A stretch of 47,288 nucleotides of DNA, taken from positions 1-47,288 of the forward strand of contig JACADW010000136.1 in the NCBI GenBank assembly GCA_013388445.1, given 5' to 3'. A model generated the notes under the pieces. It saw nothing but the letters and a program-made list of their open reading frames with translations. It did not search any database and had not been told where the DNA came from. The stretch comes from Acidobacteriota bacterium (lineage in GTDB: Bacteria > Acidobacteriota > UBA6911). Of the stretch, positions 5,486-26,346 are shown piece after piece. Positions within the stretch are counted from its first letter, which is position 1; every line of letters starts with the position of its first letter. The translations under genes and the position numbers were made by a program.

Positions 5486-7156
5486 TTATCGGCCGAAGGC
5501 CCAGCCGAGATGCTCCATCCCCACGCGGACGGCACGCTGGAAAGTTCGTGTGTCACCGAAGAGCATCTTGATGTAAGTGAAGACAGGTCCGGGACGGAAG
5601 GCCCACTCGCGGAACGCCCGCCGCTGCCAATAGAGCAGATCCTCGGCCGAGAGGTTGCCGTATTCGAGGACGGTGTCCTTATCCATGTCGACCTGTTCCC
5701 ACCGCGTTCCCTTGCGGAACCATCCGTTTTCCACGACCTGGAAAAAGAATGGCGTCCCGGGATATGGAGCAGCCACATGGAAAAGAGCGATGTCCAAGGG
5801 CAGAGACTTCGACAAGTCGATCGTCTCCCGGATTGTCTCCACCGTCTCTCCCGGCAACCCGATGATGAAATACCCCCAGTTCCGGATGCCTGCCTCCTTC
5901 GCCCATAGAAGCGCCTGCCGCGCCTTTCCGGGCGATGCGCCTTTGCGCGCCCGCTTGAGGATCATCTCGTTGCCGCTTTCGATCCCCCATGATATCATCC
6001 AGCACCCCGCACGCCCCATCATCCTCAGCATCTCCTCGTCGACATAGTCGACCCGGCTGTTGCAGGTCCACTTGATGCGCAGTCCTTCTTTGATGATGAG
6101 CTCGCACAGTTCCATGACCTGCGCACGGTTGACGGTGAAGAGGTCGGCGTACATATGGATGTTGTGGATGCCAAGACCGTACAGGAGCTTCAGCTCCTCC
6201 ATGATCTTCCGCGGAGAGAGCAGGCGGACTGAATTCTGATACGAGACGTGCTTGATGCAGTAAGAGCATCCGGCCGGGCAGCCTCTGCTTGTGACTATGA
6301 AAGTGAAGGGGCCTTTCATCAGGGGCATCCTATAGCGTTTCAAGGGCAGGAGATGATGCAGGGGCATCGGCAAATCGTCGAGGCTGGGGATGAAGGGCCG
6401 GCTCGCATTGATCCGGATTTCACCAGCCTTGCGCCAGACCAGCCCCTTGATCTGTGACAAGTCAGGCGGCGCGTCTCCCCCATCGACCATGCGTCGAGGC
6501 TCCCATGAGGGATCTGTCTTATGCAGCAGGGCCCGGATCCACTCGGGCTGTGTGACTTCACGATCCTCGAGATAGTCCACCAGTTCCCTGATGGTGAGCT
6601 CGGGCTCGCCCCGGAGCACATAATCGAGTGCCGGGTAGTCGCGCATCGTCTCAAGGGGCATGGGTGTCACGTGAGTGCCGAAGGCCATGGTCCGTGCGCC
6701 GATGCTCCTGGCCAGCATGACACCATACATGTCATTTGTGAGCGTCGGCGCGGTAACCTGCGTCAGGTAGTACTTCGGCGACCTCGCGCGCAGCACGTTT
6801 TCAAACTCGTTCCAGCTCATTCGCTCGGCGATGGCATCCACGATGGCTACCGAATAGTCGGGGTGGAGCATTGCCGCGATCTGTGCAAGCGAGCACTGCG
6901 GCCAGATCATTTCCTCGCGGCTTCGCCGGCCGACGCGGTGCTGAGTTCTGATCCATATGCCCCCGTCAGGCGACGGGGGATTGACCAGCAGAACATCCAC
7001 GGCCGTTTCAGGCCGCAGCCTCGCCAGGCCGCGCACGGCCACCCCTGCGTCCGGGAAATCCACTGTCCGAACCGGCCGGATGGTTCGCGTGCCCAGATTG
7101 TGCCGGATCTCCGGCGGTATCTCCTGAACCTTCTGATCGCGCACCTGGTCGTTCAC
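5486..7156 (-). CDS. Cobalamin-binding-domain (class B) radical SAM enzyme
   Basis: 556 aa. The N-terminal stretch is Rossmann-like and B12-domain-like (VDVLLVNPPSP...IVDAIAERMSWNEFENVLRARSPKYYLTQVTAP...AFGTHVT). It is followed by the radical SAM cluster motif SRGCPAGCSYC (CxxxCxxC, about nt 6257-6280). Confidence 0.9.
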   Translation of the reverse strand: MNDQVRDQKVQEIPPEIRHNLGTRTIRPVRTVDFPDAGVAVRGLARLRPETAVDVLLVNPPSPDGGIWIRTQHRVGRRSREEMIWPQCSLAQIAAMLHPDYSVAIVDAIAERMSWNEFENVLRARSPKYYLTQVTAPTLTNDMYGVMLARSIGARTMAFGTHVTPMPLETMRDYPALDYVLRGEPELTIRELVDYLEDREVTQPEWIRALLHKTDPSWEPRRMVDGGDAPPDLSQIKGLVWRKAGEIRINASRPFIPSLDDLPMPLHHLLPLKRYRMPLMKGPFTFIVTSRGCPAGCSYCIKHVSYQNSVRLLSPRKIMEELKLLYGLGIHNIHMYADLFTVNRAQVMELCELIIKEGLRIKWTCNSRVDYVDEEMLRMMGRAGCWMISWGIESGNEMILKRARKGASPGKARQALLWAKEAGIRNWGYFIIGLPGETVETIRETIDLSKSLPLDIALFHVAAPYPGTPFFFQVVENGWFRKGTRWEQVDMDKDTVLEYGNLSAEDLLYWQRRAFREWAFRPGPVFTYIKMLFGDTRTFQRAVRVGMEHLGWAFGR

Positions 7157-13688: not shown

Positions 13689-13837
13689 TCCTGGAATACA
13701 GGACGGTTTCGCTGTAACATCTGCGGTTATCGTCAGCCAAGTTGACCGGCGACAGAAACCACGCGATATGTGACAGATTGCACATATCGGATGTGTGTCT
13801 CTATAGGATTATTTGGGCGTCCGCGTGGAGTGTCCGC

Positions 13838-14350
13838 ATGGCTCATACTTTCGGAATTATGCGAGATTCGTCGAAGGCAATCCTCTGGTGCGTCGTCCTT
13901 TGCGCCCTTGGCAGTCCGCCTGCCTGGGCGGATGACGTCGGGCTGGCCTGGGATCCTAACACAGAAACCGACCTCGCCGGGTACAAGGTCTACTACGGCA
14001 CCGCGTCCCGCACGTACGGGCCGCCTGTCACCATCGGACTTCAAACCACATATACAGTCACGAACCTGCCGCCCGGCACCTACTATTTCGCGGTGACGGC
14101 TTACAACACCGCCGGCCTGGAAAGCGGATTCTCGAACGAGGTATCCGCCAACATCCCGGGCACGCCCTCGGGTTGCGATTGTAACGGCGACGGCCAGACC
14201 AACGTCAGCGACATCCAGACACTGGTCAACGTCGTCCTCGGGGCGATCCCGGGCGGATCGGCCTACGATGTCAACCGGGATGGGGTGGTCGATATTGTCG
14301 ACGTGCAGATACTCGTAAACGTCATCCTTGGTCTCAGGAGCTGCCCATGA
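13838..14350 (+). CDS. Small secreted protein: signal peptide + Fn3-like domain + type-I dockerin-like domain
   Basis: Signal peptide MRDSSKAILWCVVLCALGSPPAWA; the alternative ATG at 13859 is also possible. Fn3-like LAWDPNTETDLAGYKVYYGTASRTYG...GTYYFAVTAYNTAGLESGFSNEV. Duplicated Ca-loop/helix CDCNGDGQTNVSDIQTLVNVVLG and DVNRDGVVDIVDVQILVNVILG (about nt 14174-14335). I trimmed the track ORF start at 13742. Confidence 0.8.
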   Translation: MAHTFGIMRDSSKAILWCVVLCALGSPPAWADDVGLAWDPNTETDLAGYKVYYGTASRTYGPPVTIGLQTTYTVTNLPPGTYYFAVTAYNTAGLESGFSNEVSANIPGTPSGCDCNGDGQTNVSDIQTLVNVVLGAIPGGSAYDVNRDGVVDIVDVQILVNVILGLRSCP

Positions 14351-17067
14351 AGCCCAACACACTCCACCGCACTCATCTGATATTGCACAGCTGCCTGATT
14401 CTGGCCGCTCTGTTACTCCTTCCGTGTGCCGCGCAGGCGCAGACTCCGTCGCTCTCAGTAGGAACGGCCGCGGGTCTCCCGGGCACAAACGTCGACATCT
14501 CCGTGTCGTTTACTCCAGGGGCAACCGCCGTCAGTTCCCTTCAGTTCGAGCTGACTTTTCCCTCCTCACTGGGCTATGTGTCGACTGCCACCGGCGCTGC
14601 CGCAACCGCGGCGGGCAAGTCTGCCACGGGGAATGCTATAGCCGGCGGCGTGCGGGTTCTCGTATTCGGACTCAATCAGAATGCGATCGGGAGCGGCGCC
14701 GTTGCGATCATTACGCTGAGTATCGCCGGCGGTACCCCTGCGGGAAACATCGCAATCGGCATCATGTTCATCAACGCGTCGGATCCGAATGGGAGCCCGG
14801 TAACCGTCACCGGCACGGGCGGGACGGTGACAGTGAACGCCCCCGCCGACACCACACCGCCGACGATCAGCAACGTTTCGGCCGGCAGCATAACGCAGAC
14901 CTCTGCCGCCATCACCTGGACCACAAACGAGGCCGCAGACAGTCAGGTTGAATACGGCACGACCACATCCTACGGAAGCAGCACGACGCTCGATTCCACG
15001 AGAGTCACCGCCCACTCGCAGGCGCTGAGCGGACTGACGGCCGGCACTCTGTACCACTACCGCGTGAGATCGAGCGATGCGGCCGGCAACCTCGCCGTTT
15101 CCACCGACTACACCTTCACGACGGCCTCAGGGTCGGACACCACCCCTCCCGTGATATCCGCGGTATCGGCGTCCGGCATCACCCCTTCGTCGGCCGCCAT
15201 CCGGTGGATCACCAACGAACCGGCGGACACGCAGGTCGAGTACGGCACAACTGCTGCATACGGATGGTCCACCAGCCTCAACGGCGCTGCGACCACGACT
15301 CACAACCAGACACTCAGCGGCCTCTCTGCAAGCACGACCTACCACTACCGTGTGAGATCCCGGGACACGGCCGGCAATCTCGCCGTGTCCACCGACTATA
15401 CCTTCAGGACGGCTGACCCCGACAGCGAGTCGCCGGGGATCACGGATGTCAGGGCCGAGCCCGGGGACCTGTCGGCGATCATCACATGGACGACCGACGA
15501 ACCTTCCACATCTCAGGTGGAATTCGGCACCACAAATGCATACGGCGAGCAATCCGCCGTGTCGAACAGGATGGTCACATCGCACTGGGTGCGCCTGACC
15601 GGGCTCACGGAGTTGACGGAATATCATTTCAGAGTGCTGTCCAACGACCCGTCAGGCAACCTCGCGGTTTCAATGGATCACACCTTCAGGACGACCAAGA
15701 ACGAGCAGCGGCAGCCTGTGAGCCTCCATCTTCCCACTCTCTCGGGCGGCCAGGGTTCTCAGAGCGCGTTGGGCTCCGGCGACAACGAATACACCGGAAT
15801 AGCCCTCGCGAACCTGGATACGGTCGACGCAAACGTCATTTTCACGGCTTTCGATGCCGACGGAAATCCGCTGGCCGGTGCCAATATCACGAATCCGAAG
15901 CAGCTGTCGCTGAAGCCCGGCGCACAGTTGCCGAAGCTGGATTACGAGATCTTCGGCGCAGGCAGCGACCGAATCGGGTGGATGAGGATCGAGAGCGGCG
16001 CCGACAAAGTTACGGGATTCTTCCTAACCTTCGACACCGATCTGATCGTTCTGGACGGTGCAACCGCATCGGCCGAACCTGTCTCTTCCTTTATCCTGCC
16101 GGAGATCGGTGAGGGAGGTTTCACCAGGATCTACCTCGCCAATCCGAACTCCGAACCTGCCTCCGTCACACTCAAGCTCATGAAGTCGGACGGCTCACCG
16201 CGCGCGTCCGCCAGCCGGGTAATCAACGCTTACGGCGTCCTGAACGCCGACATCTACACCGACATCTTCCAATCAACGCCGGATCCTACGGACTATATCC
16301 AGGGTACGTCAGACAGGCGCGTGGTGCCTTTCGAGATGCTAGGTGAGACGGGGAAACACATACGGGTCCTCAGCGGCCAGGACACAGGCAAGGGTTTCAT
16401 GCGGATCTATTCTCCGCAGTATGCGGTCGGCGGCCCGTGGCGTTCGACCGTATCCGTGATAAACCTTGATCCCTGGGCGGCGAGCGTCACGATGAAGTTC
16501 ATCCCCAAGGGCTCCACGCAGCCCACATCGACGGTGGTTCGCAACATCCCGGCCAACGGCAAGATCTACCTTTCGGACCAGTCGATCTTCGTGAGTCCCG
16601 GTTCAGTTCCTCCGGGTGCGGTCGCCGAGGGATACTTGGATATCTGCAGCAGCGGCGGCGCGCGACTGAGCGGAAGCGTCGCGTTCGGGGATTCTCAGGG
16701 CGAGAGCTTCTCGTCGGCGCTGCCTCTGGTCGGTGAACTGAGGACCAGCGTCGTGTTCAGCCATGTCGCGTCCAACGATACCTACTTCACAGGCCTCGCG
16801 CTTCTAAACCCGGGCCTGAGTGCGGCGATGGCGAGGATCGAACTTTATGACGCCGAGGGAAACCGTCAGGAGAGCGCAGATCAGATCGTCCCCGCGCAGA
16901 CTCGGATATCGCGGCTGTTGACGGAATACTTCCCGAATCTCATTTACCAGAGCTGGACATCGGGATACATTCGGGTAAGCTCCACTGTGCCCACAGGCTG
17001 TTTTGCGCTTTTCGGCACCAATAACCTGTCGGTGCTGTCCGCGATTCCGGCTCAGCCCGCGCCGTAA
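14347..17067 (+). CDS. Large secreted modular protein: signal peptide + cohesin-like domain + 3 tandem Fn3-like domains + 4 copies of an unnamed beta-sandwich-like repeat
   Basis: 906 aa. The signal peptide ends in AAQAQT. The cohesin-like region spans aa 33-164 (nt 14443-14838). Three ~95-aa repeats (DTTPPxIS...ITWTTNExADxQVEYGTT..YG...YHYRVRSxDxAGNLAVSTDYTF) span nt 14845-15696. The C-terminal module spans nt 15718-17064. Its ATG overlaps the upstream stop (ATGA). Confidence 0.85.
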   Translation: MKPNTLHRTHLILHSCLILAALLLLPCAAQAQTPSLSVGTAAGLPGTNVDISVSFTPGATAVSSLQFELTFPSSLGYVSTATGAAATAAGKSATGNAIAGGVRVLVFGLNQNAIGSGAVAIITLSIAGGTPAGNIAIGIMFINASDPNGSPVTVTGTGGTVTVNAPADTTPPTISNVSAGSITQTSAAITWTTNEAADSQVEYGTTTSYGSSTTLDSTRVTAHSQALSGLTAGTLYHYRVRSSDAAGNLAVSTDYTFTTASGSDTTPPVISAVSASGITPSSAAIRWITNEPADTQVEYGTTAAYGWSTSLNGAATTTHNQTLSGLSASTTYHYRVRSRDTAGNLAVSTDYTFRTADPDSESPGITDVRAEPGDLSAIITWTTDEPSTSQVEFGTTNAYGEQSAVSNRMVTSHWVRLTGLTELTEYHFRVLSNDPSGNLAVSMDHTFRTTKNEQRQPVSLHLPTLSGGQGSQSALGSGDNEYTGIALANLDTVDANVIFTAFDADGNPLAGANITNPKQLSLKPGAQLPKLDYEIFGAGSDRIGWMRIESGADKVTGFFLTFDTDLIVLDGATASAEPVSSFILPEIGEGGFTRIYLANPNSEPASVTLKLMKSDGSPRASASRVINAYGVLNADIYTDIFQSTPDPTDYIQGTSDRRVVPFEMLGETGKHIRVLSGQDTGKGFMRIYSPQYAVGGPWRSTVSVINLDPWAASVTMKFIPKGSTQPTSTVVRNIPANGKIYLSDQSIFVSPGSVPPGAVAEGYLDICSSGGARLSGSVAFGDSQGESFSSALPLVGELRTSVVFSHVASNDTYFTGLALLNPGLSAAMARIELYDAEGNRQESADQIVPAQTRISRLLTEYFPNLIYQSWTSGYIRVSSTVPTGCFALFGTNNLSVLSAIPAQPAP
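14845..15696 (+). repeat. Three tandem ~285-bp coding repeats (Fn3-like domains) inside the 906-aa gene
   Basis: The repeats are visible at DNA level. For example, gccggcaacctcgccgtttccaccgactacaccttcacgacggcc compares with gccggcaatctcgccgtgtccaccgactataccttcaggacggct. The third copy is more diverged. Confidence 0.85.
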
Positions 17068-17317: not shown

Positions 17318-17445
17318 AGCTGCGGTCGTCTTGACGGCTGAGCCGGCCGGGCCGCGAAATCCCCCGTCTTTTCTGATATTTTGCACCGCCCCGAAACGTC
17401 AGGATCGACAAGGCTTTCCCTTCATGATACCCTTCCGGCACGCCT

Positions 17446-19299
17446 ATGCGAAAGCTTCCCGGCTCCGCTCTCATGCTCCTGTGCGGAGTTCTGCATGCGG
17501 AGGACGTGCAACTCGTATGGAATCCGAACACCGAGCCTGCCCTTGCAGGCTACAAGCTCTACCAGGGCACGGAGCCACGCAAATACACGACCAGCACCGA
17601 CGTCGGCAAGACCACCACCTTCAAGGTCACGGGACTGCAGCGCGGCATTCACTACTTTGCCGTCACAGCCTATGACTTCAGCCGCGTGGAGAGCGACTAC
17701 TCCAACGAGGTACGTGTCGCGATCGATCCGCCCGGCCAGCCATTCCCCGCGCCGGCGGTCCGCACCGTGGGGAATGCCGCCACGATAGCCTGGGAGACGG
17801 TCCGGCCCTCTGCCGTGCGCATCGACTACGGTCCGACGGTTGCCTACGGGAGTTCGGTCAGTTCCGGCTCCGTCTTCACCCTGAAGCACACGCTGGGATT
17901 GACCGGTCTTGCGCCTGCCACGACGTACCACTACCGGACCGTCTGCCGGGACGACGCCGGCAACGTCACCATCACCGGTGACATGGTCTTCACGACGCCG
18001 GCCGACGCCACAGCGCCGATTGCGGCCACCTTCTATTACCCGCGCACGGTCGGCCCGTCTGAAAACCGGATGTATACGGGTGTGGCTTTCGTCAATCTGG
18101 ACTCCGGCCCGGCCCTCTTGACCTTCAGGCCTTGGGCAGGGGCCGGAACCCTGAGCCCGGGCATCCGGATCCTCAATGCTGGCGAACAGATCGCCGTCCT
18201 GGATGTCGAGATCCTCGGCGAGAGCACGGCGGTCCAGGAATCTGCAGGTTGGGTGGAGGTGAATAGCACCACTGCGAGGATGTTCGGCTTCTTCATGAGT
18301 TTTGACCACGCGCTCAGTTCGCTCGAGGGCTCGACGCTTCTCCGTAGTCCTGTCACAGGCCTGCTTTTCCCTTCGCTCGTCGCCGAGCGTATGCCGCAGC
18401 TCATGCTGGCGAATCCGCGTGAAACGCCGGCCGGCGTGACGCTCGAATTCCTGGGCACGAACGGAACGGTCCTGAGATCGGTGTCTCTCGGCATCGGTGC
18501 GGCAGCAGCCGTCAGTGTGCCATCTCCCGTTGTATTCTCCCATGTCCGCGCCACTTCGGACACGCCGGTCGTGGGTTTCCAGGTTCTCGAGAGGCCCGGC
18601 GATTGGAAAGCCTTCCTGCCGGCTCAGAGCTTCGGATCGGGCGCAACCGTGCTCTGGGGGCTTCAGTATGTTCATGGGGACTTCTGGCATTCCCACGTCA
18701 CGCTCGTCAACACGGGTCCAACCGCTGACACTGTCTCTTTGCGATGGGTGGCGGATGACGGGACGCAAATCGGGCAGGCCCGGTCGCTCTCCATCCCGGC
18801 CAATGGCGGGGCCGTGGTCGCGGACCCCGGTGAATTCGGGGTGGGCGGAGACACAATCCGGCAAGGGTACATCGAGATCCGAAGTGCAGTCGCCCGCATT
18901 GCGGGAAGCGTGACCATCCACGATGAGGCCGCAGGACGATTCGCCACGGCCCTGCCGCTCATCTCCCAGCCGGCAAGCCTCCTTGTCGTACCGCACGTGG
19001 CAAGCGACGGGACTTACTTCACGGGTCTGGCCGTCGCGAACCCATCGGACGCCGACACCCGATTCACCGTCGAACTCCGAGGAGCCGACGGGAATCTCAG
19101 ATCGAGCGTGTCGGAAACCCTGGCTGCAAGAAAAAGGAAGGCGCGGCTGGTCACAGAATTGTTCCCGGAGCTGTCATCCCAGAGCGTGCTTTCGGGCTAT
19201 CTGCGGATCGTCGCAGACCGGCCCGTAGTGGCCTTCGCCGTTTTCGGCACACACGACCTTTCCCTCTTCTCCGCAATCCCCGCCCAGGCTGTGCAGTAG
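17446..19299 (+). CDS. Secreted modular protein: signal peptide + 2 Fn3-like domains + 4 copies of the same unnamed repeat
   Basis: 617 aa. Signal peptide MRKLPGSALMLLCGVLHA. The first Fn3 is a paralog of the dockerin protein's (VQLVWNPNTEPALAGYKLYQG...HYFAVTAYDFSRVESDYSNEV). The second is like the 906-aa protein's (IAWETVRPSAVRIDYGPTVAYG...YHYRTVCRDDAGNV). The C-terminal module runs from about nt 18013 and ends in FAVFGTHDLSLFSAIPAQAVQ. Confidence 0.85.
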   Translation: MRKLPGSALMLLCGVLHAEDVQLVWNPNTEPALAGYKLYQGTEPRKYTTSTDVGKTTTFKVTGLQRGIHYFAVTAYDFSRVESDYSNEVRVAIDPPGQPFPAPAVRTVGNAATIAWETVRPSAVRIDYGPTVAYGSSVSSGSVFTLKHTLGLTGLAPATTYHYRTVCRDDAGNVTITGDMVFTTPADATAPIAATFYYPRTVGPSENRMYTGVAFVNLDSGPALLTFRPWAGAGTLSPGIRILNAGEQIAVLDVEILGESTAVQESAGWVEVNSTTARMFGFFMSFDHALSSLEGSTLLRSPVTGLLFPSLVAERMPQLMLANPRETPAGVTLEFLGTNGTVLRSVSLGIGAAAAVSVPSPVVFSHVRATSDTPVVGFQVLERPGDWKAFLPAQSFGSGATVLWGLQYVHGDFWHSHVTLVNTGPTADTVSLRWVADDGTQIGQARSLSIPANGGAVVADPGEFGVGGDTIRQGYIEIRSAVARIAGSVTIHDEAAGRFATALPLISQPASLLVVPHVASDGTYFTGLAVANPSDADTRFTVELRGADGNLRSSVSETLAARKRKARLVTELFPELSSQSVLSGYLRIVADRPVVAFAVFGTHDLSLFSAIPAQAVQ

Positions 19300-19997: not shown

Positions 19998-21167
19998 CTA
20001 CCGCTGATCGAACGCCTCAGACAGACGGCACCACCGCCGAGGATCCTCTGATTCAAGGGCAGCCGGGTCCGCTCCCAGCTGTCTGGCCCGCGCCAGCGCC
20101 TCATCCGCCTTCTCCGTTTCTCCGCAAGCCTCGAGCGCCCCGCTGAGCAGATAGAGGACTCTCGGGCGGTTCGGCTGCAAAGCGTCGGCCTGTTCGAGCA
20201 GCGAGCGTGCCGCTTCCACGTTGCCCTGCAGGTAGCGCAGGATGGCCAGATTCAGCAAGACAGCCGGATCGGACCGCGAAAGTCTTTGGGCTTCGAGCAG
20301 GTGCTCTGCCGCCACGGCATAGTCGCCCCGGCGGAGCTCTGCGACGGCGAGATTATTCAGCGCGGCCGCCGATGGTCGCGCCGAGACTATGGATGCGAAC
20401 GATCGCGCCGCCTCGGCCGCCAGGTCCTTTTTCAGGTAGCACACCCCGAGCAGGAACTGGGATTCCAGATAGCGCGCGGGCCGCCTGCGCGCCGGCTCCA
20501 GGTATCGGATCGCGCTCTCGCAGTCTCCGGAATCGTAGTAGTAGCGTCCCAGCCGGAACTGCGCTTCGGAATAGCTTGGGTGGAGATTCACCGCCCGCCT
20601 GAGCGCGAGGACCTGGTCCTCTTCGTTCGTGCTCTCGAGGCTCGCGATGAGCGCGGCAAAGGCCGAATTCGGGACAGTCCGCGTTCTCTTCTTGAACGCC
20701 TCGCGCGATACGGGCGGGTCGAGCCCGGCGTTGCTGATCAGATTGAAGGCGAGCTCGTTTTCCATCTGAGAGAGAAAGGAGAGCGGACCGCTTGCAGATA
20801 CTGCTCCACCCTTGCGCATTGTCTTCAGGTCGAGCACCTGGAGCGTGATATTGATCCCTCCGGGTGTCCCGGAATAGGAACCGGTCACGACATAATCCAC
20901 CGCCGCCAGCTGGCCCACCCGGATCATGCTGGCCATGCTCAGCGGCAACCCCGGCGGCAAGTCGGCGTGCTCCAGAAGCTCCAGCCGCTCATCCCGGTCC
21001 AGAGCTTTGACACCCGGGACCTGTATCTGTTCGGAGACCGACAGGGCAATCCCTTCAGCCAGCCAGCCGAGCGCGGCCGTGGCTTGATTCTCGGGAGGGA
21101 AAATCAGGAAATTCACGTCCGCGGCCTGCGCCGCGGACAAGCAGAGAAACCAAAAGACGAATCCCAC
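19998..21167 (-). CDS. Secreted TPR-repeat protein
   Basis: 389 aa with a GTG start. Signal peptide MGFVFWFLCLSAAQA. The C-terminal half has TPR-like repeats (AQFRLGRYYYDSGDCESAIRYLEPA..., ESQFLLGVCYLKKDLAAEAARSFASI..., LNNLAVAELRRGDYAVAAEHLLEA..., LLNLAILRYLQGNVEAARSLLEQA...). It is the last gene of the ABC operon, with a 1-nt overlap. Confidence 0.75.
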   Translation of the reverse strand: MGFVFWFLCLSAAQAADVNFLIFPPENQATAALGWLAEGIALSVSEQIQVPGVKALDRDERLELLEHADLPPGLPLSMASMIRVGQLAAVDYVVTGSYSGTPGGINITLQVLDLKTMRKGGAVSASGPLSFLSQMENELAFNLISNAGLDPPVSREAFKKRTRTVPNSAFAALIASLESTNEEDQVLALRRAVNLHPSYSEAQFRLGRYYYDSGDCESAIRYLEPARRRPARYLESQFLLGVCYLKKDLAAEAARSFASIVSARPSAAALNNLAVAELRRGDYAVAAEHLLEAQRLSRSDPAVLLNLAILRYLQGNVEAARSLLEQADALQPNRPRVLYLLSGALEACGETEKADEALARARQLGADPAALESEDPRRWCRLSEAFDQR

Positions 21168-21961
21168 TACTGCTCCAGCACGTATTCCTTCTCGCGAAGA
21201 ATCAGGCTGGCGCTGGCCAGGAAAAACGCGGCCATCAACACCAGCGTGATCACCGACTCAAGCGCCGGTGTCCGCTCGCCGATCATCATCGCGATCGCAC
21301 TCGCCGTATCCGCATGCGGTGAAATCGACTGCACATAATGGGTGACCGTCAGCTTGCGCGTGAAACCGGGCAGGTAGGAGATGATCCCTTCCCACCCGAA
21401 CGCATAGATCAATCCGACCAGGATCGGATGCTTCAGCCACGCTCCGAGCAGGCTGAAGAATGCCCCGTAAACCAGCATCGCAAGGAATACGATGCCGACA
21501 TCCTTGCCCAGCGTGCCGACGTCCCGCATAAGCCTGGTCGTATCCGGACCGAGATAGAGTACCAGATAGCTGACCAGGATGGTCGGGATAACGAGCATCG
21601 AGCTGATCCAGACCAGGGCCAGGTACTTGCCGATCATGATCGCCGGCTTGGGGACCGGCCTCGTGAACAGATAAGTAATGGTCCTGCCCTCGAGTTCCTC
21701 CGAAATGAGCGCGGTCCCGTAGAAGAGAGTCACGAACGTCACGAGAAAATGGATCACGGCCGTCGCCATGAGAGTCCCGAACACCTGCTCGGGCGTGAAC
21801 GGCACGCGGATCCAACTGAAGCTCAGGATCAGGCGGCCGAGGACCGCGAGCCCGACGATCACAAGCGAGACGGCTGCAATGAATAGGGTCTTCTTGCTCC
21901 AGAAAAGGGTATCCAGAGTCAACAACCCGATCGTCTTGACCGGCTTGACCAAATTTCTCAT
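21167..21961 (-). CDS. ABC-2 type transporter permease
   Basis: I trimmed the track ORF (to 22180) to the ATG at 21961-21959, which overlaps the ATPase stop as ATGA. The product is MRNLVKPVKTIGLLTLDTLFWSKKTLF...GTALISEELEGRTITYLFTRPVPKPAIMIGKYL, with six hydrophobic helices. It is NosY/ABC-2-like. Confidence 0.8.
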   Translation of the reverse strand: MRNLVKPVKTIGLLTLDTLFWSKKTLFIAAVSLVIVGLAVLGRLILSFSWIRVPFTPEQVFGTLMATAVIHFLVTFVTLFYGTALISEELEGRTITYLFTRPVPKPAIMIGKYLALVWISSMLVIPTILVSYLVLYLGPDTTRLMRDVGTLGKDVGIVFLAMLVYGAFFSLLGAWLKHPILVGLIYAFGWEGIISYLPGFTRKLTVTHYVQSISPHADTASAIAMMIGERTPALESVITLVLMAAFFLASASLILREKEYVLEQ

Positions 21962-22881
21962 TTGACCAGGTAATGGAAAACGGCCTGAAGGTTGTCGTCC
22001 GGCGAGGTCAGCTCGTCGAGGTCGATCCCACGGCTCAGAAGCAGCCCGGGCAGCCGATCGTAGAATGCGTCGGGCTGACGTGACTCGACCGTGAGGGCGT
22101 TTCCCTCCGGATGAAAACGGACACCGACCACATCCGAAAATCCCACAAGCGCCTCCGCCAGGCGCCGCGGGTCGGAACACCGGATGTGGACATTATGCGG
22201 GTGTTTGTCGATCAGTTCGCGGATCTGATGGACATCGCCTTCCGCGAGGACCCGGCCATTGTGCATCAGGAGGATGTTGCCGGTCATGGCCTCGATTTCG
22301 TGCAGGATGTGGCTCGAGACCACGACGCACTTCCCTTCGCGTCCCCAATCGCGCACCAGCTGTATTGCCTCGTGACGGCCGACAGGGTCCATGCCGGCCA
22401 GCGGTTCGTCCAGGATGATCACTTCGGGATCGTGGGCAACGGTCTGGGCCATCTTGATGCGCTGGCGCATCCCCTTGGAATAGGCCGCGATCTTCTTGTC
22501 GCGGTCCGCGGTGAGACGGACACGCTCGAGAGCCGCATCGGTTCGCCGGGATACTTCCTCTTCAGAATAGCCGTTCAGCCTCAGAAGCGACGAGACAAAC
22601 TCGGCGCCGCTCATGCGCTCATAGAAGGAATCCTGCTCGGGGCAGAATCCCATTCTCGCGAACAGCGGGTAGTTGTTCCAGATCCTCTGCCCGAAGACCG
22701 TTATCTCTCCCTGGCTCGGGCGCAGCTGGCCCATGATCATCTTCATCAGGGTCGATTTCCCGGCCCCGTTCGGCCCGAGGAGGCCAGTCACGCCGGCATC
22801 GACGGAAAACGAGACGCCGTTGACGGCAATCACCTGCCCGTACCACTTCGAAAGGTTGCGGGCTTCAAGGACGGCGCTCAC
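21958..22881 (-). CDS. ABC transporter ATP-binding protein
   Basis: Walker A GPNGAGKST, signature YSKGMRQRI, Walker B VIILDEPLAGMD, H-loop SSHIL. 307 aa. Confidence 0.95.
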   Translation of the reverse strand: MSAVLEARNLSKWYGQVIAVNGVSFSVDAGVTGLLGPNGAGKSTLMKMIMGQLRPSQGEITVFGQRIWNNYPLFARMGFCPEQDSFYERMSGAEFVSSLLRLNGYSEEEVSRRTDAALERVRLTADRDKKIAAYSKGMRQRIKMAQTVAHDPEVIILDEPLAGMDPVGRHEAIQLVRDWGREGKCVVVSSHILHEIEAMTGNILLMHNGRVLAEGDVHQIRELIDKHPHNVHIRCSDPRRLAEALVGFSDVVGVRFHPEGNALTVESRQPDAFYDRLPGLLLSRGIDLDELTSPDDNLQAVFHYLVK

Positions 22882-23720
22882 CTAACCACCTCCACGGCCT
22901 GCACGCGGTTGTGGACGACCCAGGCGCCCCCGCCGATGATCACGAGTACCACCACGACCGATATCCACACCGGGGACGGGTATCTCGGGTCGATGCGGAA
23001 TATCGTGTCGCCGAGCTGCTCGATGTTGTTTCCGAGAGAAACCCACGCCACGCGCCTCGAGCGCAGGATCCCGCTCAGGATGCCGTAAAGGATCTGGCTG
23101 AAGAAGAAGACGGCCGCAAAGTTGATCCCGGCGAAGCGGCTGCTGCGCGTGAGCGAGGAGAGCGTCAGGATGACGAGTGCGAAGGTGAGGACCATGACCA
23201 GAGAATAGGCCGTCACGGATACCGGCACCCAGTAGTGTTCCCGCAGAAAGGCCGTATCGGGCGCAAAGAGCACCGCGAGCAGGAACAGGATCAACCCGGG
23301 GACGAGCGTCGGCAGCGAGAGAAACCAGACAAGGACGCCCAGCTTCCCGATCACGTAATCGCGGCGCGTAATCGGTTTCGAGAAGTAGATCTGCAGAGCG
23401 TTGGCCCGGAGGTCGTTCGAGATCAGCCCGGCACCGGCATAGATCGCGATGAAAAACGCGAAGAACATCTGCTGGCTGATGAAGTCCTCGAAGAACCTCG
23501 CGTTGATCTTCAGAAAAGGCGCGCTCGCCCCGACGACCGTCGCGAAGTAGATCATCGCGCCGCGCACGACAAAGGGGATCGCCGAGAGGATCATCAGAAC
23601 AAGGAACCGGCGCCTCTTCATGAGCAGCTGGATTCCCTGCCGCGTGATCACCCACCACCGGTACGGGTGCGACGTCCATTCGCCCTTCCAATGGCGGTAG
23701 CCGAGGTCATGAATCGGCAT
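22878..23720 (-). CDS. ABC-2 family membrane protein (permease partner)
   Basis: 280 aa. N-terminus MPIHDLGYRHWKGEWTSHPYRWWVITRQGIQLLMKRRRFL, followed by six hydrophobic helices. The start and stop overlap both neighbouring ATPase genes. Confidence 0.75.
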   Translation of the reverse strand: MPIHDLGYRHWKGEWTSHPYRWWVITRQGIQLLMKRRRFLVLMILSAIPFVVRGAMIYFATVVGASAPFLKINARFFEDFISQQMFFAFFIAIYAGAGLISNDLRANALQIYFSKPITRRDYVIGKLGVLVWFLSLPTLVPGLILFLLAVLFAPDTAFLREHYWVPVSVTAYSLVMVLTFALVILTLSSLTRSSRFAGINFAAVFFFSQILYGILSGILRSRRVAWVSLGNNIEQLGDTIFRIDPRYPSPVWISVVVVLVIIGGGAWVVHNRVQAVEVVR

Positions 23721-24630
23721 GCGACTCTCCTATCACCTGGAGGAACACATCCTCTAGCGACTGGCGCAGCGGCACGAGGTGCCGGATCTGGACGCGGCCA
23801 TCGCGTGCCGCCTCGAGGAGCGTCCGGCTGTCCAGGCCGCCGGCCATCCGAATGCGGAGGACGCCGTCTTCGTTGCGTGTGCAGCGGCAGCCCAGCGCCT
23901 CGAGCTTATCCGCGAAGCCGCTTCCGTCTCCCTTGAGCCGCACTTCATAGACCGCGCCCGACCCCCGCTTCAGGTCCTCAATATTGCCGCTGGCCAGCAT
24001 CCGGCCTTTGTGGATCACCATCGCCTCGCGGCAGACCCATTCGACATCGGGCAGCAGGTGCGAGGAGAGGACCACGTGAATCCCCTTGGTGCTGGAGATG
24101 TCGCGGATGAGCTCGAGCATCTCCATGCGCCCTTTGGGATCCAGGCCGTTCGTGGGTTCATCCAGGAAGACCAGCTCGGGGTCGTGCACCAGCGCCTGCG
24201 CCAGTTTGATGCGTTGCTTCATGCCGGCCGAGTACGTCTCGACGTTGCGGTACCGGGCCTCGCCAAGGCCCACATAGAAGAGCGTTTCGTGCGCCCGCCG
24301 CAGCGCGTCTTTCGGCTTCATGCCCGAGAGCTGTCCGGCGTAGGCGACATAGCTGACGGCGTTCATGCCCGGGATATGGCAGTCGTTCTCGGGCATGTAG
24401 CCGATCTTCTGCCGGATGCCCAGTTGCTCCTTGCGGATATCGCAGCCCAGGACCCGCCCGGTGCCGCTTTCAGGTTCGATGAACCCAAGAAGTGTATTCA
24501 GCAGCGTCGTCTTGCCGGCGCCGTTGGGGCCGAGCAGGCCCGCGGAGCCTCCCGAGAAACGGACGTTCACACTGTCGAGGATCTTTTGCGTCCCGAAACG
24601 GACATTGATGTTATCGAGTTCTATGATCAA
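23707..24630 (-). CDS. ABC transporter ATP-binding protein
   Basis: Walker A GPNGAGKTT, signature YSAGMKQRI, Walker B LVFLDEPTNGLD, H-loop SSHLL. The track start at 24678 is a TTG. I prefer the in-frame TTG at 24630, which gives MIIELDNINVRFG, a typical ABC N-terminus. The start remains uncertain. Confidence 0.9.
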   Translation of the reverse strand: MIIELDNINVRFGTQKILDSVNVRFSGGSAGLLGPNGAGKTTLLNTLLGFIEPESGTGRVLGCDIRKEQLGIRQKIGYMPENDCHIPGMNAVSYVAYAGQLSGMKPKDALRRAHETLFYVGLGEARYRNVETYSAGMKQRIKLAQALVHDPELVFLDEPTNGLDPKGRMEMLELIRDISSTKGIHVVLSSHLLPDVEWVCREAMVIHKGRMLASGNIEDLKRGSGAVYEVRLKGDGSGFADKLEALGCRCTRNEDGVLRIRMAGGLDSRTLLEAARDGRVQIRHLVPLRQSLEDVFLQVIGESHADS

Positions 24631-24913
24631 GAGGCAGCTCTCGGCGTGTATTACGAAGGGGAACGGGGAGAAGTTCAAGCGGAAAAAGCAGGATGCAGCA
24701 TTACGAAGAGTCGCTCATCGGTGCGGCATGCACCCAAGCGCCCGGCAACCGCTCAATTGTTTGATTCTTAGAGTCCTGCAGTCTTTGAGAGAATCTCGAA
24801 GGCGCCGGGCCCCCAGGAGTCAAAGAAGTAATTCCGAGGCAGAACGCGGGCGGGGCACACGGTCGCTGGAAATGGGGCTTGTTTGAGCTGGGGGTGGGGC
24901 TTACAATCGAATC

Positions 24914-25243
24914 ATGAAAGCCGCTGCCATATTCCTTACATTGCTCCTCGCTACGGCCGTATTCTCCGTAGAAGGAGATACTTACAGGCTTCTGTCCGTT
25001 TCAACATCGGCCAAGCTCGTCCTGGTTTCACAGCCCGGAACAAAGACCAAGTTGCTGCTCGACGCTTCGGCCGCGAAGATCACTGTCGACGGGAAGCCCG
25101 CTGAGTTCAAGAACCTCAGCGATTACTCCACGATCCACGTCCGACTCACCCAGAAGAAGTTCAATAAGGAAGGAGTCGCTATCGACGGCACCGCCACCGA
25201 GATACGCATCCTGACGCCCGAAAACGTACCAGCTGAGAAATAG
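24914..25243 (+). CDS. Small secreted hypothetical protein
   Basis: 109 aa. Signal peptide MKAAAIFLTLLLATAVFSVEG. Codon third positions look coding. I recognise no family. Confidence 0.5.
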   Translation: MKAAAIFLTLLLATAVFSVEGDTYRLLSVSTSAKLVLVSQPGTKTKLLLDASAAKITVDGKPAEFKNLSDYSTIHVRLTQKKFNKEGVAIDGTATEIRILTPENVPAEK

Positions 25244-25296
25244 ACACTTGCAAGCCCCTCAATCATCGAATCGCGGCAACGAGACATTTTCCTCCG

Positions 25297-26346
25297 ATGG
25301 GTCCCTCCTTTAAGAAGTACGCCGACAACTGGGAAACCGAGAGATACGAACTCCTGAACACTCGCGTCTGCGACCTGCAGTTCAACTTCCAGGGAACGCT
25401 GTTGAGCCGCTGCCTGCAGAAGCTCTTCTCCGAGCTTGCGGCCAAGAAGATCCAGTTCCGTCCCCAGTATTTCTTTACCTGCGGGGGAGACGAGTGGGGC
25501 TGCCCGGACCGGGTTCCCATCATCGGCATTCCCTTCCACCTCGCCGACAACCGCCTGACGCGTATCGAGCGCGAGATGGGCTATACCTCCTACGACAAGC
25601 GCGACCTCATGATTCTGCTCCGGCACGAAACCGGGCATGCGGTCAACTATGCGTATACGCTCTACAAGACAGCGGAGTGGGAGGAGATTTTTGGCGATTT
25701 TCAGAAGGTTTACCCAACAAACTTCAGGTTTAAGTTTAACCCTTACAGCCGCAACTATGTGCAGAGTCAGGGCGATCCGAAATACTACGCACAGGCTCAT
25801 CCGGACGAGGACTTCGCGGAGACCTTCGCCGTGTGGCTCACACCGCGGTCGAACTGGCGCAGGCGCTACGAGAACTGGCCGGCGCTCCGCAAACTGGAGT
25901 ACATCGACCGGACCATGCGGCGCCTGAGGCACCGCAAACCGCAGGTCCACGCGGGGCCGCTGGATTCGGCCTACCATACGCGGACCTACAGGCTGATCGA
26001 GTACTACGGAGAGAATATCGACGACTTCAAGGACAACGCCCTAGGGATCTACGATGACGAGCTCAAACGGATATTCCCCGTCATGGCTGAGGGAGTGGAC
26101 CGGCGGATTCTGGCAAAAGACCTGATCCGGAAGAACCGGCGGTTCCTGATCCGGACGATCGCCGACTGGACCGGAGCCCGCGACAAGGTTGTGGCGCCGG
26201 TGATCATCAAATTCTTCCGGCGCTCGCGCGACCTGGGACTCTACCTGCCCGAGGAGGAGGAAAGCTACCGCCTGGCCTCGCTCACGGCGCTCGGAACCGC
26301 CGTCGTGATGAACTATCTCCACACGGGACGCTACATCCCCGATTAG
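25297..26346 (+). CDS. Putative zinc metallopeptidase-like protein (HExxH)
   Basis: 349 aa with LLRHETGHAVNYAY (HExxH) and a downstream DEDFAETFAVW. It resembles the putative zinc-binding metallopeptidase family of bacteria. This is from memory, not searched. Confidence 0.65.
   Translation: MGPSFKKYADNWETERYELLNTRVCDLQFNFQGTLLSRCLQKLFSELAAKKIQFRPQYFFTCGGDEWGCPDRVPIIGIPFHLADNRLTRIEREMGYTSYDKRDLMILLRHETGHAVNYAYTLYKTAEWEEIFGDFQKVYPTNFRFKFNPYSRNYVQSQGDPKYYAQAHPDEDFAETFAVWLTPRSNWRRRYENWPALRKLEYIDRTMRRLRHRKPQVHAGPLDSAYHTRTYRLIEYYGENIDDFKDNALGIYDDELKRIFPVMAEGVDRRILAKDLIRKNRRFLIRTIADWTGARDKVVAPVIIKFFRRSRDLGLYLPEEEESYRLASLTALGTAVVMNYLHTGRYIPD

Follow-up and report, generated by a model that had tools for sequence, protein, structure and literature searches.

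We analyzed a 47,288-nucleotide (nt) stretch of DNA from an Acidobacteriota bacterium (GenBank assembly GCA_013388445.1, contig JACADW010000136.1, positions 1 to 47,288; hereafter the window), in which a small gene for a secreted protein with a C-terminal dockerin (P1) overlaps a large gene for a secreted protein with an N-terminal cohesin (P2). Cohesin and dockerin are the textbook high-affinity assembly pair, and we know of few roles assigned to them outside cellulosomes; the Acidobacteriota are a dominant, poorly studied soil phylum. A first-pass annotation, made from the sequence alone, had described four open reading frames (ORFs) on the + strand at 12.9 to 19.3 kb, all of which are present as described in the ORF list. 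These genes, with the parts of P1 and P2 (lengths in amino acids [aa]), are as follows.

P1, 13838..14350, + strand: small secreted adaptor, 170 aa
P1 parts, + strand: signal peptide; Fn3 head, aa ~31-103, nt ~13928-14146; dockerin, aa 113-166, nt 14174-14335
P1/P2 coupling junction, 14336..14350, + strand: AGGAG Shine-Dalgarno sequence at 14336-14340, ATGA stop/start overlap at 14347-14350
P2, 14347..17067, + strand: large secreted protein, 906 aa
P2 parts, + strand: signal peptide, aa 1-~31; cohesin, aa ~31-172, nt ~14437-14862; three Fn3/Pur_ac_phosph_N domains, aa ~172-450; body, aa 453-906, nt 15703-17064
P3, 17446..19299, + strand: paralogue of P2, 617 aa
P4, 12972..13688, + strand: probable truncated remnant

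Domains and translational coupling of the dockerin and cohesin genes

The TGA of P1 (14348-14350) overlaps the ATG of P2 (14347-14349), and the 4-nt overlap noted in the first-pass annotation can be read directly in the junction sequence, gctgcccATGAagccc. The Shine-Dalgarno sequence of P2, AGGAG, lies within the Arg-Ser codons of P1. The same arrangement recurs in all 10 overlapped pairs that we recovered from related loci, where the overlap has the form ATGA or GTGA and a GGAG is placed inside the conserved Arg-Ser codons, 7 to 10 nt ahead of the overlapped start. At the window junction and at nine related ones, the Arg-Ser codons that supply the Shine-Dalgarno sequence of the cohesin gene belong to a conserved R-S-C-P at the C terminus of the dockerin protein, such that the constraints on the protein and on the translation signal overlap. 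The P1-P2 gene pair is translationally coupled.

Analysis of P1 bore out its proposed composition of a signal peptide, one Fn3 domain, and a dockerin. The signal peptide is of the Sec type, ending in A-W-A before DD; the Fn3 domain matches PF00041 in Pfam (E = 1.8e-8); and residues 114 to 163 match Dockerin_1 (PF00404) over profile positions 3 to 56 of 57, with 32.9 bits against a cutoff of 22.9 (E = 7.7e-8). The two D-x-N-x-D-G...D loops quoted in the first-pass annotation are also present. The two dockerin repeats, DCNGDGQTNVSD-IQTLVNVVLG and DVNRDGVVDIVD-VQILVNVILG, each comprise an EF-hand-like loop followed by a helix, and the D, N, D, and D positions of the loops are invariant across 30 relatives (alignment A2). 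The dockerin is bracketed by Cys113 (14174-14176) and Cys169 (14342-14344), both invariant in all 30 aligned relatives and found also on enzyme-borne dockerins of the same subtype (see below); to judge from this pattern, they may form a disulfide clasp tying the ends of the dockerin together. In some relatives, a second pair of Cys residues lies between the dockerin repeats. A lipoprotein anchor for P1 was considered and rejected, as conservation across the family does not extend to the Cys residues of the P1 signal peptide.

With clusters at 90% identity as the unit, P1 has a family of 1689 relatives at E<=1e-3. In other phyla, including Nitrospirota, KSB1, and Desulfobacterota (loci L021-L088), the ORFs carrying an N-terminal P1-type Fn3 range from 113 to 1324 aa, and in 62 of 68 loci the domain is the extreme N-terminal module and directly follows the signal peptide. 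This placement fits a transferable head, and these architectures suggest that the P1-type Fn3 is a leader or head domain of wide occurrence.

The first-pass annotation had also read the N-terminal region of P2 as cohesin-like, a reading sustained by an orthologue profile and by the predicted fold but not by Pfam when applied to the window's own sequence. Full-length homologues of P2 are numerous, and many have a precomputed match to PF00963 (Pfam Cohesin). We aligned the N-terminal domains of 13 P2 orthologues (49 to 68% identical to the window domain) with that of the window itself (alignment A1). Individually, 12 of these 14 members match PF00963 (best E = 2.9e-13). The A1 profile recovers from the Protein Data Bank (PDB) the scaffoldin cohesin of Clostridium cellulolyticum (2vn5/1g1k) over its full length with E = 1.8e-9, followed by nine further cohesin sequences; the P2 region alone, searched with phmmer, gives three weak PDB matches (E = 0.43 to 1.3), all of them cohesins. 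The domain is predicted with AlphaFold2 (pLDDT 96.2) to adopt the cohesin fold, a nine-stranded flattened beta-sandwich (jelly-roll). A Foldseek search of the PDB with this model returned 109 matches at E<=1e-3; all 50 of the matches listed are cohesins (TM 0.64 to 0.83), and the top one among them is a noncellulosomal cohesin of Archaeoglobus fulgidus (2xdh; E = 1.7e-11, TM 0.80). We regard the cohesin assignment, as drawn from homology and predicted fold and not from a direct profile match, as sound.

Downstream of the cohesin, Pfam detects three stretches of Fn3/Pur_ac_phosph_N (E = 1.3e-27), followed by a C-terminal region with a weak match to DUF5719 (PF18986; 31.1 bits against a cutoff of 26.2). 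Profile sequence searches with these last 454 aa found no relatives in the PDB. An AlphaFold2 model of this body, built from an alignment of 20 homologues (A3), has a pLDDT of 89.6 and a pTM of 0.89 and comprises about four predicted beta-sandwich domains. Taken singly, these domains match, with a Foldseek probability of 1.00, the Thermotoga protein TM1070 (1nc7; TMt 0.74) and the sensory rhodopsin transducer of Anabaena (ASRT; 2ii7-2ii9; TMt 0.59 to 0.69). De Souza, Iyer, and Aravind defined the ASRAH superfamily, to which these two proteins belong, predicted that its members bind sugars, and proposed that the extracellular versions, encoded next to glycosyltransferase genes, are surface polysaccharide binders (PMC2739507). 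By analogy and from the modeled fold, the body of P2 would most likely bind polysaccharide. Matches to the whole body (CD109, C3, alpha-2-macroglobulin, transglutaminase, and pilins) have TM < 0.2 and were discounted as generic multi-beta-sandwich arrays. We found no mention of DUF5719 in the literature searched.

Long ORFs lie on the - strand opposite these genes, such as those at 13733-14488 (251 aa) and 17422-18996 (524 aa). We dismissed them as functional genes because they overlap + strand genes supported by homology; long antisense ORFs are common in DNA of ~62% GC.

Conservation of the gene pair and its proposed covalent counterparts

In a scan covering one genome per species, full-length Fn3-dockerin genes are nearly confined to metagenome-assembled genomes of Acidobacteriota/Terriglobia, with two more in Portnoybacteria. 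We scored all loci with hidden Markov models of both modules and obtained 19 nonredundant small Fn3-dockerin genes. Ten of them overlap a cohesin gene by 4 nt, and a further two have a cohesin gene 20 to 40 nt downstream; in two others a cohesin fragment lies ~300 nt downstream, and in three a cohesin gene lies 1 to 3 kb downstream. The remaining two, without a nearby cohesin gene, are those of Portnoybacteria. The reverse census, a metagenome scan with the cohesin profile, showed a dockerin-ending gene directly upstream of the cohesin gene in 13 of 23 closer relatives (10 of them overlapped). Among related loci (numbered with the prefix L), L001 has two overlapped Fn3-dockerin/cohesin pairs and a third cohesin gene, L007 and L008 have one overlapped pair each, and no dockerin gene adjoins the cohesin genes of L004 and L005. 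Co-conservation of the pair in relatives, on which the first-pass annotation had staked its own reading, is thus borne out by both censuses and by L001, L007, and L008. Conservation of the pairing is strong, although not universal.

More distant relatives of the cohesin (26 to 41% identity) occur in L113 and L116-L119 as two or three tandem cohesin domains 450 to 660 nt apart, with a dockerin between the first and second cohesins in L113 and L116. These are possibly multi-cohesin or self-linking proteins.

The next gene, P3, encodes no cohesin; its product has a signal peptide followed by an Fn3 head of the P1 type, a single Pur_ac_phosph_N Fn3, and a four-beta-sandwich body. P3 is paralogous to P2 from the third Fn3 of the latter onward (34% identity over 535 aa to P2 aa 376-903) and matches DUF5719 with 42.4 bits (E = 6.1e-11; cutoff, 26.2), while its N-terminal Fn3 (17500-17750) is 47.5% identical to that of P1. 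Similar genes are found in L009 and L014. From its domain composition, P3 would be the covalent counterpart of a P1-P2 complex. As it bears the P1-type head covalently in place of the cohesin, it argues, by Rosetta-stone logic, for the dockerin-cohesin link as the means by which this head is attached to this body. A different fusion is seen in L025 (2337-4472), where a 711-aa protein combines an fn3 domain, an internal Dockerin_1, a Pur_ac_phosph_N Fn3, and a DUF5719-type body and is encoded upstream of an adjoining cohesin-body gene; such a protein could cross-link two bodies. The P3 and L025 fusions independently argue that P1 and P2 function as one unit.

The count of four genes in the cluster does not stand, since the first, P4 (12.9 to 13.7 kb), corresponds to the last ~249 aa of a 1447-aa protein in L014. 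P4 is 57% identical over 249 aa to the C terminus of that secreted protein, which has LTD, PPC, beta-helix, and body regions, the body with four beta-sandwiches. Of a body-type protein, P4 keeps just the final two beta-sandwich domains, and it has no signal peptide. No homology was found for the part of the ORF upstream of P4 (12342-12972), which looks noncoding. Judged by this comparison, P4 is a probable remnant.

Pfam, NCBIfam, PDB sequence, and fold searches found no catalytic signature in P1 to P4, in agreement with the first-pass annotation; apart from the dockerin, the matches are to fn3/Pur_ac_phosph_N, DUF5719, and beta-sandwiches. Its broader statement that the pair has no catalytic partner holds at this locus but not elsewhere, where the same dockerin subtype occurs on enzymes. 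We searched a dockerin-only profile (A4) against 1.84 billion representatives and added Pfam scans for architecture, recovering 17854 proteins at E<=1e-3, of which 935 reach E<=1e-10. Single C-terminal dockerins of this type, scoring 80 to 90 bits like those of the small proteins, are found on M12B reprolysin-like proteases (P0408 and P0411); others end a GH30 enzyme (P0429), which has a Pur_ac_phosph_N-type Fn3 as does P2, a beta-helix protein (P0421), and a BNR protein (P0460). A separate dockerin-only profile search for homologues gave only fragments of <115 aa, which carry no architecture information. No enzyme-borne dockerin is present in the window or in the related sequence of L001-L088, and for none of P0408, P0411, P0429, P0421, and P0460 could we show a genome shared with a cohesin of the P2 type.

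Proposed assembly and its alternatives

We propose that P1 and P2 constitute a two-part, nonenzymatic secreted protein held together by a 1:1, Ca-dependent dockerin-cohesin contact. The two proteins would be translated together, with the 4-nt overlap and the Shine-Dalgarno sequence in the last codons of P1 favoring equimolar synthesis, and both would be exported by their Sec signal peptides. The C-terminal dockerin of P1, probably stapled by the Cys113-Cys169 disulfide, would plug into the single N-terminal cohesin of P2 to give the order Fn3 head, dockerin-cohesin junction, three Fn3 spacers, and four ASRT/TM1070-like beta-sandwich domains, an arrangement that P3 would present in one chain. 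The complex would act as a glycan-binding or structural protein at the cell surface or in the matrix, and not as an enzyme complex. Through the cohesin, the body would also be a socket, in principle open to other proteins with this dockerin subtype, hydrolases encoded elsewhere among them. The term scaffold, as used in the first-pass annotation, overstates the case, since one cohesin and one dockerin argue for a 1:1 pair. Going by their domains and gene arrangement, P1 and P2 quite likely bind each other; for the proposal as a whole, comprising cotranslation, export, 1:1 Ca-dependent joining, and a glycan-binding body, we would put the probability at roughly 0.55.

Several observations weigh against this proposal. 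The cohesin region of P2 itself (aa 33-173) has no Pfam match even at E<=10. About 40% of the related cohesin genes have no adjoining dockerin gene, and cohesin genes outnumber dockerin genes in L001 (3 versus 2) and L005 (2 versus 0), so that the pairing is not obligatory. The suggested sugar binding by the body draws on a fold resemblance (E ~3e-4, 15 to 20% identity) and on a published prediction. A PEP-CTERM sorting signal was rejected, as no PEP-CTERM family appears among the Pfam and NCBIfam matches of P1 to P4; P2 ends in ...SAIPAQPAP and P3 in ...SAIPAQAVQ, neither with a hydrophobic tail, and no lipobox Cys is conserved across the family. The host is presumably a diderm, and without an anchor motif, the proteins could remain periplasmic. 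Finally, the first-pass annotation had linked the pair to the adjacent exopolysaccharide (EPS) locus, and this neighborhood is not conserved in relatives.

The cohesin genes lacking an adjoining dockerin gene, and the clusters holding more cohesins than dockerins, could also be understood if P2 and its paralogues were single-cohesin anchors that display dockerin-bearing hydrolases or proteases encoded elsewhere, with P1 as their default occupant, cap, or competitor. That the same Cys-bracketed dockerin subtype ends M12B, GH30, beta-helix, and BNR proteins, the GH30 protein also sharing the Pur_ac_phosph_N-type Fn3 of P2, is consistent with such a role. However, these enzymes have not been found together with a P2-type cohesin, either in one genome or at the loci surveyed above, and both the tight 4-nt overlap and the fusions in P3 and L025 suggest that the Fn3 head is the intended partner. 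Moreover, with 17854 proteins matched by A4 at E<=1e-3, likeness of subtype need not mean shared specificity. We consider enzyme display, a live rival to the proposal, unlikely. The same abundance, dockerins being far commoner than cohesins, could instead be taken to mean that the two proteins do not interact, the dockerin being a Ca-binding module that stabilizes the protein or binds another ligand, the cohesin fold a generic beta-sandwich, and the adjacency a matter of coexpressing physically independent secreted proteins. The Portnoybacteria genes without a nearby cohesin and the divergence of the window's cohesin from Pfam would be in keeping with this; but the overlap is specifically with the cohesin gene and is conserved over many loci, the top structural matches, among those listed, are all bona fide dockerin-binding cohesins, and the architectures of P3 and L025 agree with an interaction. 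Independence of P1 and P2 therefore appears very improbable. The remaining alternative concerns the genes to the right of the cluster, identified with Pfam:

Right-flank context, 19998..24678, - strand: secreted TPR protein, 19998-21167; two ABC-2 permease/ATPase pairs, 21167-24678

P1 to P3 might work with this TPR protein and the two ABC-2 transporters, perhaps also with Wzc-type EPS genes, in a polymer-export or envelope-spanning apparatus, where they would be envelope or periplasmic components and not a free protein of the surface or matrix. The TPR and ABC-2 block lies directly to the right of the cohesin genes not only in the window but also in L001, L005, and L008, and the TPR gene is also present in L007 and L012. 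The best NCBIfam match of the TPR protein, albeit weak, is the XrtA/PEP-CTERM TPR protein PrsT, and P1 to P3 bear Sec signal peptides only. On the left, some clusters are flanked by exosortase-related genes (EpsI and a PEP-CTERM protein) or a Wzc-like gene, yet these flanks vary among relatives, comprising a CPBP protease with a TPR protein, a PEP-CTERM protein, or EpsI, with the Wzc-like gene found in L016 only. L007 keeps the TPR gene without the ABC-2 genes. The ABC-2 subfamilies matched are ABC2_membrane_2/4, with a DrrA C-terminal domain on one ATPase, which we take not to be of the Wzm/Wzt polysaccharide type. In addition, the collinearity to the right extends, in the same relatives, past a small ORF and a Peptidase_Mx gene and on through the nuo operon, which has the look of a chromosomal backbone shared among close relatives. 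Participation in an export machinery thus seems distinctly unlikely, if less so than independence of the two proteins.

The proposed two-part P1-P2 protein can be compared with three groups of known systems. The body domains of P2 and P3 resemble the ASRAH superfamily in matching DUF5719, which we take to represent the actinobacterial ASRAH surface lipoproteins of De Souza, Iyer, and Aravind, and in the single-domain matches to the TM1070 and ASRT folds. The P2 body differs in that it would consist of four tandem copies in a compact unit (pTM 0.89), fused to Fn3 domains and a cohesin and lacking a lipobox. With the cellulosome of Clostridia, the pair shares its two interaction modules. The P1 dockerin has two near-identical Ca-loop/helix repeats, as do type I dockerins, and enzymes with its dockerin subtype exist in the databases. 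Type I dockerins can bind in either of two orientations. Unlike the cellulosome, however, P2 has one cohesin and is not a multi-cohesin scaffoldin, the coupled partner P1 is noncatalytic and carries only an Fn3, and the host belongs to the Acidobacteriota. No CBM, SLH, or GH family was found in P1 to P4 with Pfam and NCBIfam, and there is no sortase anchor, these being features by which we would recognize a cellulosome. The same two modules are used by the Ruminococcus bromii amylosome and by a complex proposed in Cloacimonadota (PMC8542988).

Noncellulosomal cohesin-dockerin modules are already a known category, according to the survey of Peer et al. (2009) as it is cited in PMC8542988. Like the A. 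fulgidus cohesin (2xdh) and the toxin and glycosidase complexes of Clostridium perfringens (2jh2 and 2w1n), P1 and P2 carry these modules on secreted proteins outside cellulose degradation. They differ from those pairs in being a conserved, translationally coupled two-gene unit in Acidobacteriota, in that the dockerin has an invariant Cys bracket and is borne by a bare, noncatalytic Fn3, in that the single cohesin is followed by Fn3 spacers and an ASRT-like beta-sandwich body, and in having the covalent paralogue P3 alongside. Our literature search found no published description of the P1/P2 family; among the papers searched, a single one names cohesin, dockerin, and Acidobacteriota, each of them once. 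The two proteins would make a minimal natural 1:1 pair, with coupled genes, a covalent paralogue nearby as a built-in control, and a possible disulfide staple. The system opens questions about the role of a noncatalytic cohesin-dockerin pair, about partner specificity, and about glycan-binding beta-sandwich proteins in the acidobacterial surface or biofilm matrix, and it could supply compact, orthogonal cohesin-dockerin parts for protein engineering. More speculatively, Acidobacteriota might use cohesin and dockerin as a general snap-on head system, in which the conserved Fn3 head, N-terminal on varied cargo in many phyla, is supplied either covalently, as in P3-type proteins, or noncovalently, by insertion of P1 into cohesins of the P2 type. 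Combined with enzyme-borne dockerins and with Fn3-dockerin-body fusions, such a system would yield a combinatorial, self-assembling protein layer organizing the exopolysaccharide matrix of these abundant soil bacteria. We hold this extension to be unlikely; if true, it would be a protein matrix system without a described counterpart.

Flanking genes

Beyond the TPR and ABC-2 genes, the + strand of the window (24914-26346) encodes a small secreted ORF of 109 aa and a cytoplasmic Peptidase_Mx protein (25297-26346) with an intact HETGH motif and no signal peptide. Both are collinear in L001, L005, and L007, where they lie between the ABC-2 and nuo genes. In view of this collinearity into Peptidase_Mx and nuo, we read the right flank as chromosomal backbone common to related Terriglobia and attach little functional importance to it. 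In published work, an inactive zincin has been linked to actinobacterial ASRAH surface proteins; we considered Peptidase_Mx as an echo of this association and rejected it, given the intact HETGH, the missing signal peptide, and a position explained by backbone synteny.

The left flank of the cluster is an EPS-type locus encoding a Wzc-like tyrosine kinase/co-polymerase, an acetyltransferase, GT2 glycosyltransferases, a B12-binding radical SAM enzyme, a Wzy_C protein, and a GT4 glycosyltransferase that resembles the PEP-CTERM/XrtA-associated stp1. The B12-binding radical SAM enzyme (5486-7156, - strand), whose best NCBIfam match is HpnJ-like at 209 bits, well under the cutoff, would be an unusual tailoring enzyme for a glycan cluster.

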